Shown: positions 2,210 through 14,641, numbered from the stretch's first letter. The stretch: 64,000 nt of DNA from an uncultured Acidimicrobiales bacterium (GCA_963830865.1 CAWHNU010000009.1:495062-559061), one strand, 5' to 3'. Numbers and translations: made by a program. Notes: generated by a model from the letters alone, not told the origin.

Positions 2210-3217
2210 GTGACGGGCGACCTCGACCTGCGGTTGGTGCGCCACTTCGTCGCCGTGGCCGAGGAGCTGCACTTCGGGCGGGCCGCCGCCCGGCTGTTCG
2301 TCGCCCAGCAGTCGCTCAGCCGCGACGTCGCCCGGCTGGAGCGCCACGTCGGCACGCCGCTGCTCGTCCGCTCGACCCGGCGGGTGGCGCTCACCCCGGA
2401 GGGCGAGCGGTTCCTCGACCGGGCGCGGCAGCTGCTCGTGCTCCAGGACGAGGCGCTGCTCGACGTGCGGTCCGCCGACCGGCCGCTGGTCGTCGACGCG
2501 GTGAGGGACGGCACCACCGCGGCCCGGGTGCTGTGGCGGGCCCGGACCTACGTCGAGGCCCGCCACCTGGAGGGTCGCTTCCACGGCGGGGTCGGGGCGG
2601 CGCTGACGGCGCTGCTCGCCGACCGGGTCGACGTCGTGTTCGGCCGGATCGGCGCCAGCCAGCGGCGGCCGACCGACCACTTGATCCGCCGGCTCGTCCG
2701 CCTGGAGCCGCTCGGCCTGATCGTGCCCGACGACCACCCGCTCGCCGAGGGGCGCAGCATCCCGCTCGCCGCGCTCGCCGGGCTCACGATCGACACCAGC
2801 GCCGGCAACACGGACGCCCCCGAGTGGGTCGATCTGGCGACCCAGCTCGTCGAGGAGCACGGCGCGATCCCGTCCCGGCCCCACCATCCGGGCATGGCCG
2901 CAGTCGCCGGAGCCGGTCCCGCCGAGACCGTGCACCACGTGCGCAGGACGGGCTGGCCGATCCTCACGCTGCTGGACGTGCCGCCGCTGCCTGGCGCCGT
3001 CGTCCAGCCGCTCGTCGATCCGGTGCCCGTCTACCCGTGGCTGGTCGTCCACCGGCCCCACCTGCGCCATCCCGGGCTCGACGCGCTGTACCGGGCCGTC
3101 GACGATCTGGCGGAGGCCGAGGGCTGGCGCCAGGCCCCCGCCGGGGCGTGGTTCGCGGCCGGGGACCGCGACCTGCTGGTGGCCGAGCCGGCCAGCTACC
3201 GCCGGCGCTCGCCGTAG
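2210..3217 (+). CDS. LysR-family transcriptional regulator
   Basis: GTG start. The N-terminal HTH LRLVRHFVAVAEELHFGRAAARLFVAQQSLSRDVARLE is typical of the LysR family, followed by a substrate-binding-type C-terminus. Confidence 0.85.
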   Translation: MTGDLDLRLVRHFVAVAEELHFGRAAARLFVAQQSLSRDVARLERHVGTPLLVRSTRRVALTPEGERFLDRARQLLVLQDEALLDVRSADRPLVVDAVRDGTTAARVLWRARTYVEARHLEGRFHGGVGAALTALLADRVDVVFGRIGASQRRPTDHLIRRLVRLEPLGLIVPDDHPLAEGRSIPLAALAGLTIDTSAGNTDAPEWVDLATQLVEEHGAIPSRPHHPGMAAVAGAGPAETVHHVRRTGWPILTLLDVPPLPGAVVQPLVDPVPVYPWLVVHRPHLRHPGLDALYRAVDDLAEAEGWRQAPAGAWFAAGDRDLLVAEPASYRRRSP

Positions 3218-10252: not shown

Positions 10253-11041
10253 TCAGCGGCCCTGGTAGTCCGGGTCCCGGCGCTCGACGAACGCCGAGAC
10301 GGCCTCGGCGAAGTCCTTGGTCCGGAACAGGCCGGTCAGCTCGGACATCACGTGGTGGGCGTTGGCGTCGAAGGTGGTGTCGAGGCCGAGGCGCATCGTC
10401 CGCTTGGCGGCCGCCACGGCCAGCGGGGCCTGGGCGGCGAGCTCGGTGGCCCACTCGGCGACCGTCTTGTCGAGCTCGGCCGCGGGCACGACCAGGTTGA
10501 CGAGCCCGAGCCGCTGGAGGTCGGCCGCGTCGAGCTTGCGGCCGAGGAACGTCACCTCGCAGGCCTTGTGCCAGCCGACCAGGCGGGGCAGCAGCCACGT
10601 GCCGCCGCTCTCGGGGATCACGCCCCGCCGCGTGGGCGGGACGAACGTCGCGGCGTCCGACGCGACGATCAGGTCGCAGCCCAGCGCGAGGTCCATGCCG
10701 TAGCCCGCGGCGGGGCCGTTGAGCGCGCACAGGACCGGAGTGTCCATCCGGCGCAGGACGAACGGCGGGGTGTCGTCGAGCCGGAACCCGCCGCCGCCAC
10801 CGCCGCCTCCCCCGGACCCGATGCCGGTCCCGGCGGCCACGTCCTGGAGGTCGAGGCCCGAGCAGAACCCGCGACCGGCACCGGTCAGCACCACGACCCG
10901 CACGTCGCGGTCGGCGTCGCATTCGACCAGCATGCGGCCAAGGTCCGCGATCATCGGGCCGCTGATGGCGTTGAGCCGGTCGGGACGGTTGAGGGTGATG
11001 GTGGCGACGTGGCCGTCGCGGGATCCCAGGACGTCGGACAT
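10253..11041 (-). CDS. Enoyl-CoA hydratase/isomerase family protein
   Basis: MSDVLGSRDGHVATITLNRPDRLNAI...VVVLTGAGRGFCSGLDL is a crotonase signature. An alternative start lies at 11059. Confidence 0.85.
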   Translation of the reverse strand: MSDVLGSRDGHVATITLNRPDRLNAISGPMIADLGRMLVECDADRDVRVVVLTGAGRGFCSGLDLQDVAAGTGIGSGGGGGGGGGFRLDDTPPFVLRRMDTPVLCALNGPAAGYGMDLALGCDLIVASDAATFVPPTRRGVIPESGGTWLLPRLVGWHKACEVTFLGRKLDAADLQRLGLVNLVVPAAELDKTVAEWATELAAQAPLAVAAAKRTMRLGLDTTFDANAHHVMSELTGLFRTKDFAEAVSAFVERRDPDYQGR

Positions 11042-11076
11042 CGGGCGATCCTCGCGCACGCAGGGACGACGCGCTC

Positions 11077-12084
11077 ATGCCCGGCCGGGAATCGCCAGGC
11101 GGTCCCGGTGGCTTCATGGTGGCGGTCATGGAACGCGAGACGGACCCGGTGCGGATCGGCCTGCTGCTGCCGCTGCGGGAGGTGCTGCTCGGCGTCGGCT
11201 GGGCGCCCCTCGATGTGGTGGACCTGGCGGTGGAGGTGGAGCGGCGCGGGTTCGCCTCGGTCTGGGTCAACGACGCCCTGGACCGGCCCCGGATAGAGGC
11301 GCTCACCGCCCTGACCGCGGTCGCCGCCCGCACCGAGCGGGTCACCCTCGGTACGGCGGTGCTCATGCCCGCCTACCGCCAGCCGCTGCAGCTCGGCCAG
11401 GTGCTCGCCTCCCTCGACCTGCTGTCGGGCGGGCGCCTGGTGGTGGGCGTCGGCGCCGGCTTCCCCGGGTTCAGCGAGAACGAGCTGGCCGCCGTCGGCG
11501 TCGACCGGCGCAGCCGCTTCGCCCGGCTGGACGACACCGTGGCCGTGTGGCGCCGCCTGTGGTCGGGCGACCGAGGCGGGTTCGAGGGATCGGTCCTCCG
11601 CTACGACTGGTTACCCGAGGTCGCCGCGCCCGCCAGTCCCGGCGGCCCGCCCGTCTGGCTCGGCGGGCTCACCCCGGCCGCGCTCGACCGGACGGGGCGC
11701 CTGTACGACGGCTGGCTGCCTTACCCGCCGGCGCCGGACGACTACCGGCCCGCGCTCGCCGCGGTCCGGAAGGCGGCGGTCGCCGCTGGCCGGGCGCCGG
11801 GCGCGGTGACGCCGGCGCTGTTCGTCACCGTGGCCCTCGACGACGAGGCCCGGGCGGGCGAGCGGCTCGACGCGTACTGCCGCACGATCTACGGCCGCCC
11901 GGCCGGGGTCGTGCGGGGCATCCAGGCGATGCTCGCAGGCCCGGCCGACACGGTGGCCGCCGGCCTCGGCCGCTACGTCGACGCCGGCGCCCGCCACCTG
12001 GTCATCCGCCCCGCCGCGCTCGACCGGGACGACCACGCCCGCCAGCTCGACCGGCTCACCGAGGTCGCCGACGGCGTCAGGTGA
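11077..12084 (+). CDS. LLM-class F420-dependent oxidoreductase
   Basis: 335-aa ORF. FASVWVNDAL...LGTAVLMPAYRQPLQLGQVLASLDLLSGGRLVVGVGAG is typical of the family. The true start may be one of the internal Met codons between 11116 and 11128. Confidence 0.8.
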   Translation: MPGRESPGGPGGFMVAVMERETDPVRIGLLLPLREVLLGVGWAPLDVVDLAVEVERRGFASVWVNDALDRPRIEALTALTAVAARTERVTLGTAVLMPAYRQPLQLGQVLASLDLLSGGRLVVGVGAGFPGFSENELAAVGVDRRSRFARLDDTVAVWRRLWSGDRGGFEGSVLRYDWLPEVAAPASPGGPPVWLGGLTPAALDRTGRLYDGWLPYPPAPDDYRPALAAVRKAAVAAGRAPGAVTPALFVTVALDDEARAGERLDAYCRTIYGRPAGVVRGIQAMLAGPADTVAAGLGRYVDAGARHLVIRPAALDRDDHARQLDRLTEVADGVR

Positions 12085-13819
12085 GCACGATCACGCAGCC
12101 GTTGAGCGTCACGGCCGCGTCTGGATCGGGGCCCACTCTCTGGCTGTGGCCCGCGGAGTCGACGGCCTCCACGGTCCAGGTGACAGTTGTCGACTGCCCA
12201 GAGAGCATCTGTGTGTCGGCGATCGGCCCGAGGGTCGCGGTCCAGACGTCCCCGGCACCCGGGGCCATCTCGATCGTGCCGTTGTGCCCCGCGGTCGACT
12301 CCCAGGTGACCTTGACACCGGCCACCCCCGAGGCGTCGGTCACGGTGGCTGACAGTTGGGTTGTGAGAGGGAGCTCGCACCGGCAACACGTGCCCGGGGC
12401 GCCACTGATGTCGGCGCCGATGACTTTGACGTTGCGCGCCAGATTCGTGACGCTGGGCGGCACGTCGGGCGGCACGTCCAGAGGGGCGGGCGCTGCTGGT
12501 GCGGGGGCGTTCGGAGTCACGCCGGACCCCGGTCGGGGGATGGTCCCCGGCCGGCGGGTCGTGGTGGACGTGGTGGGCGAGGCGGTGGTGGCCGTCTGGT
12601 CCGGCGCCGGTAAGGTCTCGCTCGCGCGGTCCTTCGGGACCCGGGCCCCGGCGTCTCCCCGGCCGGACCCGACGGTCGTGGCCGTACTGCTGCCGGCCCG
12701 TTCGTCCGGATCGGCCGGCGCGGACGAGGTGACGAGGTCGGCCGTGTGGGCGTCTCGGGTACACGAGCGCAACGTCACCGCTCCCACGGCCAGCACCGTC
12801 ACGACCAGCGGCGCCAGCACGAGCGCCCCCTTGGCGCGGCCCACCACCCGTGGCGGGCGCTTCGGCGGAGGTTTCTTGGCCTCGCGCAGTGCGTCACCGG
12901 CCGCCGCCGCGATGCTGCCGCCGTCGCCGGGCGGGCCCGGCGGAGGTTTCTTGGCCCCGGTCAGCGCGTGACCGGCCGCCGCTGCGATGCTGCCGCCGTC
13001 GCCGGCTGCTCCCAGCGGAGGGTTGGTGGCCCCGCTCAGGGCGTGACCGGCCGCCGCCGCGACGCTGCCGCCGGCACCCCCGGCGCCGGCAGCCGGCCCG
13101 GGGTGGGGGGCGGCCAGCAGGGCCGCGCCCGCAGGGACGCCGACCGCGAGAGCGATGCCCGAGCCACCGTCAGGCCCGCCGGCCAGGAGGGCGGCACCGC
13201 ACGCCGCCGCGGCGCGGGGCCCGCGGGCGACCACCGCGCTCAGCCCGGTGGTGGCCGTGATGCCCTCCGCCAGGCCCGGCAGCCACACGGCCCCACCGAC
13301 CACGACGACCACGTCGGTCTCCCTGGGCACGAGGCCGTGCGCCGTCAGCGCGAGTGAGACCGCCTCCACCGCGGCCGCCCGGGAGGACAGCGGCCACCCC
13401 GCGGGCGGCCCGTCGATCGCCAGCCCGTCGGGCCGGGAACGCACCGCCGTGACCACCACGCGGGTCTCCTCGGCCTCGACCACGATCAGCACGGCGTCCG
13501 GGTCCACCTCGTTGGTGTGCGTGAACCACCGGGCCGCGGCAACCGGCCGCGGCACCAAGAGCGGATCCTCGAACGCGCCGCGGGCGGCGGCCTCCAACTC
13601 CGCCCGGGCAGCCCCGAGCGCGGGCACCGCGACCGCGACGGCCGGGACGGCGTCCGCGCCCACCAGTCGGCTCGCCAGCGACGCCAACCGGTGCTGCGTG
13701 GTCGCGTCACCGGCCAGGTCCGCGGTGGGAACGACGAGGGCCTCCTCGATCTCGTCTCCGCGACGGCGCGCCGCCACGGACGTCACCTCGCCCAGGTCGA
13801 TTCCGACTGCGTCACCCAT
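12077..13819 (-). CDS. Hsp70/actin-like ATPase-fold protein with one TM helix and a Cys-containing C-terminal beta-rich domain
   Basis: Probable start MGDAVGIDLGEVTS at 13819. Degenerate Hsp70 NBD motifs are present (GIDLG; VVVVGGAVWLPGL). These are followed by three 25-aa Ala/Gly/Pro repeats, a TM segment (ALVLAPLVVTVLAVGAVTL), a Pro/Thr-rich linker and a roughly 110-aa terminal domain. Confidence 0.7.
   Translation of the reverse strand: MGDAVGIDLGEVTSVAARRRGDEIEEALVVPTADLAGDATTQHRLASLASRLVGADAVPAVAVAVPALGAARAELEAAARGAFEDPLLVPRPVAAARWFTHTNEVDPDAVLIVVEAEETRVVVTAVRSRPDGLAIDGPPAGWPLSSRAAAVEAVSLALTAHGLVPRETDVVVVVGGAVWLPGLAEGITATTGLSAVVARGPRAAAACGAALLAGGPDGGSGIALAVGVPAGAALLAAPHPGPAAGAGGAGGSVAAAAGHALSGATNPPLGAAGDGGSIAAAAGHALTGAKKPPPGPPGDGGSIAAAAGDALREAKKPPPKRPPRVVGRAKGALVLAPLVVTVLAVGAVTLRSCTRDAHTADLVTSSAPADPDERAGSSTATTVGSGRGDAGARVPKDRASETLPAPDQTATTASPTTSTTTRRPGTIPRPGSGVTPNAPAPAAPAPLDVPPDVPPSVTNLARNVKVIGADISGAPGTCCRCELPLTTQLSATVTDASGVAGVKVTWESTAGHNGTIEMAPGAGDVWTATLGPIADTQMLSGQSTTVTWTVEAVDSAGHSQRVGPDPDAAVTLNGCVIVLT
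12864..13088. repeat. 3 x 75-bp tandem repeat inside the Hsp70-like gene
   Basis: Units start at 12864, 12939 and 13014 (ggcggaggtttcttggcc...gcgatgctgccgccgtcgcc). On the minus strand they encode GGSIAAAAGHAL(T/S)GAKKPPPGPPGD-type repeats. Confidence 0.8.
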
Positions 13820-13917
13820 GGACCCCGCCGCCTCGCCGCATCCGCATGCCGCTGCTGAATGTAGTGGCGTGACCACGTTCCGGGTAGCAGAAAATTGACA
13901 GGGACGACTCCCGTTTA

Positions 13918-13931
13918 CGAACACATGTTCG
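13918..13931. promoter_or_regulatory. LexA (SOS) box, Gram-positive/actinobacterial Cheo-box type: CGAACACATGTTCG
   Basis: It is a perfect match to the CGAAC-N4-GTTCG consensus. It lies 1 bp upstream of a TAGGCT -10-like hexamer and 14 bp upstream of the ATG at 13945. Confidence 0.6.
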
Positions 13932-13932
13932 C

Positions 13933-13938
13933 TAGGCT
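13933..13938 (+). promoter_or_regulatory. -10-like hexamer TAGGCT (TANNNT) placed 6 nt before the ATG; geometry of a leaderless transcript
   Basis: Read directly. A spacing of 6-7 nt between -10 and start codon is the usual actinobacterial leaderless arrangement (established knowledge). No SD sequence is present. Confidence 0.4.
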
Positions 13939-13944
13939 GGCGGC

Positions 13945-14112
13945 ATGACGCCGGAGCAACTCGACGAGCTGTCGAAGCGACACGCCACGTTCACGACGAC
14001 GGCCCTCTACATGCAGCATCCCCGCAACGATCTGGACCGCTGGCGCCGAGACTGGGCCGAGATCAACCGCCTGGTGGAGGAGATCAACCGCCTCGTGCGC
14101 CTGTACCGCTGA
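13945..14112 (+). CDS. Small hypothetical protein (55 aa), hydrophilic and helical-looking
   Basis: Absent from the ORF track because it is under 60 aa. ATG 13945 to TGA 14110-14112. Translation is MTPEQLDELSKRHATFTTTALYMQHPRNDLDRWRRDWAEINRLVEEINRLVRLYR. GC3 bias is strong, consistent with real coding. Confidence 0.5.
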   Translation: MTPEQLDELSKRHATFTTTALYMQHPRNDLDRWRRDWAEINRLVEEINRLVRLYR

Positions 14113-14179: not shown

Positions 14180-14641
14180 GTGGCAGCTAGCGTCCCGGCG
14201 ATGACGTCGTGGGGCGACCCCCTCGATCCGGTGGCCGGCGCCCAGCGCATGACCGAGTTCTTCGGTCCGCTCGTGCCGGGCCAGCTCGGCTGTGTCTTCG
14301 ACCACTCGGCCAAGGACCTGGTCATCGGGCACATCGACGTGACCGAGAGCCTCATTGCCGGGACCGGCTACCTCTTCGCTCCCGCCGTCATTGCCCTGGC
14401 CGACACGTGCGCGGCGATCGGCTGCGGGAACAACCTGCCCGACGACACGTCGTTCACGACGATCGAGCTGAAGACGAACTTCCTCTCGTCGGCCCGCCTC
14501 GGCGAGCGTGTCGCGTGCCGGTGCGTGCCGGCTCATCTCGGTCGCCAGACCCACGTCTGGGATGCCGAGGTCACCAACGAGTCGAAGGGCCGGGTCATGG
14601 CGTTGTTCCGTTGCACCCAGATCCTCCTGCCACGGGGGTGA
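14180..14641 (+). CDS. PaaI-family (hotdog-fold) thioesterase
   Basis: GHIDVTESLIAGTGYLFAPAVIALADTCAA...TIELKTNFLSSARLGE...GRQTHVWDAEV is the PaaI/4HBT pattern. The start may instead be the Met at 14201. Confidence 0.8.
   Translation: MAASVPAMTSWGDPLDPVAGAQRMTEFFGPLVPGQLGCVFDHSAKDLVIGHIDVTESLIAGTGYLFAPAVIALADTCAAIGCGNNLPDDTSFTTIELKTNFLSSARLGERVACRCVPAHLGRQTHVWDAEVTNESKGRVMALFRCTQILLPRG

Follow-up and report, generated by a model that had tools for sequence, protein, structure and literature searches.

Introduction

Nearly every SOS regulon contains small effectors that are restricted to one lineage and escape homology searches. Division inhibitors are the expected checkpoint output of such a regulon, and with SulA, YneA, SidA, SosA, and DivS, every newly found effector stalled the cell cycle in its own way. 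SulA of Escherichia coli, which is LexA controlled, and the small cytoplasmic FtsZ inhibitors Kil of phage lambda and MciZ are soluble and bind a division protein directly; TisB and DinQ are short hydrophobic membrane peptides with an antisense RNA partner. DinI, RecX, and gp7 are small modulators of RecA or LexA that work by protein-protein contact alone. Tum of coliphage 186 and the Gifsy proteins GfoA and GfhA are small LexA-controlled antirepressors that act in trans and lie inside prophages. Sda of Bacillus subtilis is a 46-residue helical hairpin, a stress-induced checkpoint protein that docks onto its target; it is controlled by DnaA, not by LexA, and blocks a sporulation kinase. A LysM domain is absent from DivS and SosA. 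The Gram-positive SOS division inhibitors YneA, ChiZ, DivS, and SosA have in common a single membrane-spanning segment, an extracellular C-terminus, and a gene that adjoins lexA, and they usually carry a LysM domain (PMC6851548). The gp7 protein of phage GIL01 is a small protein that acts solely by binding LexA (PMC4551915).

The locus described here belongs to an uncultured member of the Acidimicrobiales. These are abundant, barely cultured soil actinobacteria for which, to our knowledge, no SOS regulon has been described. The LexA operator reads TCGAAC-N4-GTTCGA in mycobacteria and CGAACRNRYGTTYC in Bacillus. Leaderless genes for small proteins are common in Actinobacteria, and mycobacterial promoters of this type have a TANNNT −10 element and start transcription at the start codon. 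Genomes of Acidimicrobiales encode both RecA and LexA (PMC10205998), and the LexA motif of Streptomyces, tCGAAC-N4-GNNCGa, was defined by chromatin immunoprecipitation sequencing (ChIP-seq) and surface plasmon resonance (SPR) (PMC9380542). We analyzed a stretch of 64,000 nucleotides (nt) from one such genome (GCA_963830865.1 CAWHNU010000009.1:495062-559061), referred to below as the window. It contains a 55-codon gene preceded by a LexA-type box. As judged by sequence comparison, the small-protein family encoded by this gene is new and undescribed; the kind of system to which it would belong, a LexA-repressed small effector gene, is well known.

Results

The box and its putative promoter

The original prediction placed a perfect LexA-type box next to a leaderless-type promoter in front of a short open reading frame (ORF). 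The region comprises the following features, listed with their coordinates in the window.

12077-13819, minus strand: divergent 'Hsp70-like' gene (weak DnaK match, E value of 0.02; no Pfam family)
13918-13931, no strand assigned: LexA-type SOS box CGAACACATGTTCG, matching 10 of 10 specified positions of CGAAC-N4-GTTCG
13933-13938, plus strand: −10 hexamer TAGGCT of the TANNNT type in the putative promoter, at −12 to −7, one base after the box
13939-13944, plus strand: discriminator GGCGGC of 6 nt between the −10 hexamer and the start codon
13945-14112, plus strand: small gene of 55 codons plus stop, with homologues, purifying selection, and a predicted two-helix hairpin product
14059-14097, plus strand: 21-nt direct repeat encoding EINRLVE-EINRLV, two coiled-coil heptads in helix 2
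14201-14641, downstream of the small gene: 4HBT thioesterase gene

Both the coordinates of the box and its match to the consensus at all ten specified positions hold. Relative to the A of the ATG, CGAACACATGTTCG extends from −27 to −14. It also fits the Streptomyces-defined motif. Within the 64-kb window, it is the sole perfect CGAAC-N4-GTTCG. When the window was shuffled 100 times with dinucleotide composition preserved, perfect boxes occurred at 0.10 per window and at least one was present in 10 of the 100 shuffles, so that a single perfect box in the window is only suggestive and not significant alone. Five sites with one mismatch lie elsewhere in the window (6 found versus 2.9 expected, which is chance level). 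On a rough gene map, two of the five are clearly intragenic and three fall into stretches that the map left undivided; as an operator, no site among the five is conspicuous. It is the conservation of the box in front of the 55-codon ORF across related loci, described below, that lifts it far above chance. By its sequence, the box is of the Gram-positive/actinobacterial LexA operator type, and we infer that it is bound by LexA. A tblastn search for recA and lexA, with the E. coli RecA and LexA sequences as queries, gave no match in the window or in any of the fetched loci.

The TAGGCT hexamer, the 6-nt gap, the ATG at 13945, and the lack of a Shine-Dalgarno sequence were found as originally described. 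Because only 6 nt separate the −10-like hexamer from the ATG, there is no room for a 5′-untranslated region or a Shine-Dalgarno sequence, and because the TAG of TAGGCT is an in-frame stop codon, the ORF cannot start upstream of 13945. Transcription is predicted to start at the A of the ATG, at position 13945. No recognizable −35 element accompanies the promoter of the small gene. A TTGACA at 13895-13900 was considered for this role and rejected, as it lies 32 nt from the −10 hexamer and its position is not conserved. A scan with the sigma-70 consensus also returned no promoter match, as can be expected because actinobacterial promoters that consist of TANNNT only should escape such a scan. Downstream of the ORF, folding of 100 nt at 17 loci revealed no common terminator hairpin, and no Rfam family was detected anywhere in the window.

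Conservation of the box across related loci

To follow the box beyond the window, related loci were fetched from genome and metagenome contigs (L001 to L033, about 150 kb in total). L001 is a near-identical copy of the window locus. The comparison set consisted of 20 distinct full-length loci, of which 13 carry a perfect box, 4 a box with one mismatch, and 2 a box with two mismatches. All 21 perfect boxes present in the approximately 150 kb of fetched sequence lie in front of this ORF. Twelve of the 13 perfect boxes, those of the window, L002 to L008, L016, L021 (copy L021a), L024, and L033, start 26 to 28 nt ahead of the start codon. In L022, whose protein is 41% identical, a perfect box lies 38 nt before the start codon and ahead of its own −10 element, TACACT; L014 combines a one-mismatch box with a GTG start. 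The diverged subfamilies (L027, L028, L032, L019, and L029) keep the palindrome, which has slid onto the −10 element: CGAACGTGTGTACG overlaps TACGCT in L027, CGTACACTTGTTCG contains TACACT in L028 and L032, the L019 palindrome reads GGTACGTTTGTTCG, and CATACAGACGTTCG in L029 is followed by TACTGT.

An alignment of 13 homologous promoters showed that CGAAC, GTTC, and the TA of the −10 element are invariant and that nothing upstream aligns. The full TANNNT is present in 11 of the 13, the exceptions being TACCGG in L024 and a shifted element in L022. In the 10 homologous loci for which spacing was tabulated, the −10 element ends 6 to 8 nt before an ATG or GTG, and 9 of the 10 tabulated N4 spacers fit RNRY. 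The elements can also be separated: the intact paralogue L021b (11692-11859) keeps a −10-like element and has no box, and L033 has a box and a degraded −10 element. As the neighboring genes differ between loci, the box tracks the small gene and not the divergent gene. Collectively, these alignments showed that the box, the −10 element, and the short spacer are conserved with the ORF through changing genomic contexts. Two claims of the original prediction, namely, that the ORF is a real gene and that it has a putative leaderless-type promoter overlapped by a LexA-type operator, were thus supported by the comparisons that the prediction itself had proposed: the ORF is conserved as coding sequence (see below), and the box is retained in homologous loci with differing flanks.

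The same alignments bear on whether the palindrome is a LexA operator at all. It might instead be bound by some other regulator or be only a promoter-associated sequence, in which case the gene would not be damage inducible. One half-site becomes GTAC or ATAC in the diverged subfamilies, where it merges with the −10 element, so that constraints on the promoter could account for some of the conservation. However, all 10 LexA consensus positions are matched in 13 distinct loci, the left half-site, which lies outside the −10 element, is as invariant as the right one, and we know of no other actinobacterial regulator that uses CGAAC-N4-GTTCG. A palindrome that serves a purpose other than LexA binding is very improbable in our estimation.

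Upstream of the box, one orthologous group carries tandem 11-nt units, G[TC]GGGACCA[GC]C, in two or three copies located 40 to 90 nt from the box (L003, 313-334; L004, 2911-2932; L005, 2913-2945; L033, 9907-9928). The units are absent from the window and may be the binding site of another regulator.

The small gene and its product

The ORF at 13945-14112, its 55 residues, and its strong GC3 bias were confirmed: GC3 is 0.91 and GC2 is 0.40, as in real genes of this genome, whose G+C content is roughly 75%. Contrary to the original description, the ORF is annotated in public data: NCBI, JGI, and ENA list the identical 55-residue protein as a 'hypothetical protein'. A word-indexed search identified 27 related clusters; with a profile derived from diverged members, the number rose to about 80 (clustered at 90% identity). 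In an exhaustive HMMER search of 1.84 billion representatives, only 43 matched, nearly all of 50 to 100 residues, and a metagenome scan with a diverged sub-alignment led to only 2 loci. All homologues with a taxonomic label come from metagenome-assembled genomes (MAGs) of Acidimicrobiales or Actinomycetota; the rest are on unlabelled metagenome contigs. Family members agree in the positions of the start and stop codons. The longer versions in databases represent mis-called starts, and their extra residues, NEHAF and RTxVRY, are the translated SOS box.

The expectation that the ORF would prove conserved as coding sequence was borne out. For ten distinct loci, the median pairwise dN/dS was 0.25 (45 pairs), which indicates purifying selection, and third codon positions were the most variable, with 41 of 53 columns variable at position 3 compared with 19 of 53 at position 2. 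These comparisons between loci showed that the small ORF is a conserved protein-coding gene.

With a family alignment of 56 sequences (A4) as input, AlphaFold2 predicted a two-helix hairpin with a mean pLDDT of 96.8, in which helices 3-22 and 30-54 flank a loop around a conserved His-Pro. The protein is hydrophilic (GRAVY, −1.0; pI, 8.3) and has no membrane-spanning stretch, the highest Kyte-Doolittle 19-residue mean being −0.32 and at most 1.07 among the 56 members. It is thus predicted to be soluble and helical. Across the family alignment, W33 and W37 are invariant, P26, R34, and L43 are nearly so, and both heptads of helix 2 are conserved. Hydrophobic residues at heptad positions a, d, and e suggest a further interface, either for self-association or for a partner.

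Neither the window protein nor its 56 relatives gave anything significant in Pfam, NCBIfam, PHROGs, or PADLOC. A profile search of the PDB returned a designed helical protein as its best match (E value of 0.068), and Foldseek returned only generic or designed helical hairpins from the PDB (best E value of 0.85) and BFVD, all with E values above 0.7. The statement that the product matches no recognized family is thus borne out in Pfam, NCBIfam, PHROGs, PADLOC, and the PDB. Weak Pfam matches to DUF6435 in 10 of the 56 members (best E value of 0.021) are far from convincing, and we read them as probable coiled-coil noise.

A small, soluble protein that is probably SOS controlled and has no DNA-binding or enzymatic features could also feed back on the SOS response itself by binding LexA or the RecA filament, in the manner of DinI, RecX, or gp7. 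Binding of LexA as the sole activity has its precedent in gp7 (PMC4551915), and a target present throughout the host would explain why the gene has no conserved neighbor. Yet Pfam and PDB searches revealed no resemblance in sequence or fold to DinI, RecX, or any solved LexA- or RecA-binding protein, and in contrast to the universal RecA and LexA, the family occurs only in a narrow clade. Such feedback therefore strikes us as quite doubtful.

Genomic context, copies, and decay

As originally stated, 99 nt separate the box from the start codon of the divergent gene (ATG, 13819). The description of that gene as Hsp70-like stands less firmly, as it goes back solely to the DnaK match at an E value of 0.02; the gene encodes a membrane protein with a weak Hsp70/actin-type N-terminus, GIDLG, followed by a Pro/Ala-rich region with a threefold repeat (GDGGSIAAAAGHAL..KKPPP). 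Given that the box is situated in the 125-nt intergenic region shared by both genes, it might serve the divergent gene, and the small ORF might be incidental or the locus might produce a noncoding RNA. We find this scarcely credible, since the Hsp70-like neighbor was seen only in the window and L001 and is replaced by unrelated genes elsewhere, the ORF is under clear protein-level selection, and the box, at −27 to −14, is placed for the promoter of the small gene and not for the divergent one.

Between the box and the divergent gene, and directly next to the former, the minus strand contains a terminator-like hairpin at 13898-13914, formed by ACGGGAGTCGTCCCTGT and then CAATTTTCTG, with a run of T residues reaching 13889. 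Two terminator-like sites were found in the 900-nt region, compared with 0.1 expected from shuffles. This hairpin could stop antisense transcription before the Hsp70-like promoter.

Downstream, the thioesterase gene has a putative leaderless-type promoter of its own (14188-14203), with TAGCGT, a gap of 7 nt, and the ATG, and lacks a box. Because of this separate geometry, the thioesterase gene is probably transcribed independently of the small gene. Close by, the window also encodes an enoyl-CoA hydratase, a luciferase-like oxidoreductase, and a CoA-transferase. At other loci, the neighbors include giant STAND kinases, a Clp_N protein, a sulfotransferase, a STAS protein, and a hexapeptide transferase. 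No two of the contexts examined have the same neighbors, and a conserved partner gene was not found.

Several of these contexts raise the possibility that the small gene is an SOS-triggered switch of mobile elements, which, like an antirepressor, would inactivate the repressor of a prophage or integrative element and would differ from the effector that we favor only in its target. The context is variable, and integrases, transposases, an Xis-like HTH protein, HNH and SIR2-STAND proteins, or a DNA methyltransferase are encoded near the small gene in L014, L021, L028, L032, and L033, with a HIRAN gene among the mobile-type neighbors in several loci. L021 contains two copies of the small gene 1.7 kb apart, and two MAGs carry two copies each. 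L004 harbors, besides its live copy, a full-length second copy (1294-1476) with an in-frame TAG that has lost its box. Insertion sequences interrupt further copies: L009 holds a 5′-truncated one (2986-3130), and in protein P0059 a copy is joined to an IS3-type transposase. For a core checkpoint gene, it is unusual to occur several times per contig or MAG, to decay frequently, and, in some loci, to have transposases or integrases close by. On the other hand, searches of 2.9 million viral contigs, 50,697 phage genomes, and 72,556 plasmids detected no relatives, and PHROGs gave no match below an E value of 0.1. The window, L016, L022, and L024 have ordinary metabolic or housekeeping neighbors and neither a repressor nor an integrase, and a conserved partner gene is missing everywhere. 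On balance, a switch of mobile elements appears rather unlikely.

Two further observations concern L021 and its relatives. A gene for a 71-residue Xis/AlpA-like HTH protein (10859-11074) lies between the two L021 copies amid hypothetical genes and hints at an integrative element. In addition, at 10045-10240 of L021 and around 2478-2700 of L019 and L020, a conserved ATGAC(C/T)CC start is shifted by one base against the frame of the remaining conserved ORF. In L021, a homopolymer error is plausible because the frameshift falls in a C-run and the contig name, contig_33513, is in the style of a long-read assembler; in L019 and L020 the frameshift may be real because the identical sequence occurs in two metagenomes.

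Discussion

Collectively, the comparative evidence supports the regulatory interpretation well: the small gene is probably a protein-coding, leaderless-type gene controlled by a LexA-type operator. As the best explanation of the locus, we consider it likely that a leaderless gene under LexA repression encodes a new soluble SOS effector. As long as the DNA is undamaged, RNA polymerase would be blocked by a LexA dimer that occupies the box (−27 to −14). Upon DNA damage, RecA would stimulate the self-cleavage of LexA and the promoter would be freed, and a leaderless mRNA starting at the ATG would give rise to a 55-residue soluble protein folded as a two-helix hairpin. This protein would then bind a conserved host protein in trans and act as a damage-inducible effector. 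Binding of a host protein in trans is the most likely mode of action because the protein has no enzyme-like features and the gene has no conserved partner.

Within this explanation, and by analogy with known effectors, we tentatively suggest that the protein halts growth, division, or replication for a time, which is more likely than any other single function. A bolder proposal, which we regard as speculative, is that the soluble hairpin of 55 to 60 residues represents the missing DNA damage checkpoint effector of Acidimicrobiales, one of a new type that would arrest division, replication, or growth by docking onto a cytoplasmic target, unlike the membrane-anchored YneA, ChiZ, DivS, and SosA. 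If so, the arrest might be costly enough that copies repeatedly duplicate, lose their operator, and decay, and the fusion of box, −10 element, and leaderless start would give the fastest possible switch-on.

The module thus provides a concrete candidate for an SOS effector gene in Acidimicrobiales, and its compact unit of operator, promoter, and start codon could serve as a reporter of DNA damage. Should the protein be a soluble checkpoint factor, it would broaden a Gram-positive picture that is dominated by membrane-anchored inhibitors; should it be only an accessory gene of mobile regions, it would be a routine addition to the LexA-regulated hypothetical genes.

How does the locus compare with the systems described so far? 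Like YneA of Bacillus, ChiZ (Rv2719c) of Mycobacterium, DivS of Corynebacterium, and SosA of Staphylococcus, the protein is small, lineage specific, and poorly conserved. The genes of these four inhibitors are LexA repressed via a box of the CGAAC-N4-GTTCG type, and the small gene carries a matching box. In contrast to them, its product lacks a transmembrane segment and is predicted to be a soluble hairpin, and the gene is multicopy and does not lie beside lexA. No LysM domain was found by Pfam in the 56 family members, and no LexA homologue is encoded in the 64-kb window or the fetched loci. Without a transmembrane segment, a LysM domain, or a lexA neighbor, the small protein cannot be grouped with the division inhibitors known from Gram-positive bacteria or with membrane toxins, and a function in division inhibition or as a toxin would be a guess by analogy. 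From TisB and DinQ it differs in being strongly hydrophilic, and no Rfam family was detected in the window.

SulA, Kil, and MciZ, which are soluble and bind division proteins, make it conceivable that a small helical protein acts in the cytoplasm. SulA itself is about three times larger and has an alpha/beta fold, and the small protein shows no SulA match in Pfam or NCBIfam and no sequence or fold match in the PDB.

At the level of the promoter, the gene resembles other leaderless actinobacterial genes for small proteins in having TANNNT 6 to 8 nt before an ATG or GTG and no Shine-Dalgarno sequence; it differs from them in that the −10 element is fused to a LexA-type box, a combination that is conserved as a unit and specific to this family. 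The phage antirepressors are likewise small, are expressed from a LexA-repressed promoter, as the small protein probably is, and are often multicopy and located in variable regions, but the small gene has no viral relatives and in the window is found among metabolic genes. DinI, RecX, and gp7 share with the predicted product that they are small, soluble, and linked to the SOS response, a link that is here suggested by the box, whereas homology to them was not detectable in Pfam, the PDB, or by Foldseek. In addition, gp7 is phage borne, and the small-protein family has no relatives in phages, plasmids, or viral contigs. Sda, for which the small protein gave no Pfam match, has the same architecture as that predicted here, an antiparallel two-helix hairpin of about 50 residues. 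Judged by architecture, the nearest analogues of the small protein would be soluble helical mini-proteins that dock onto a target, such as Sda, Kil, and gp7.
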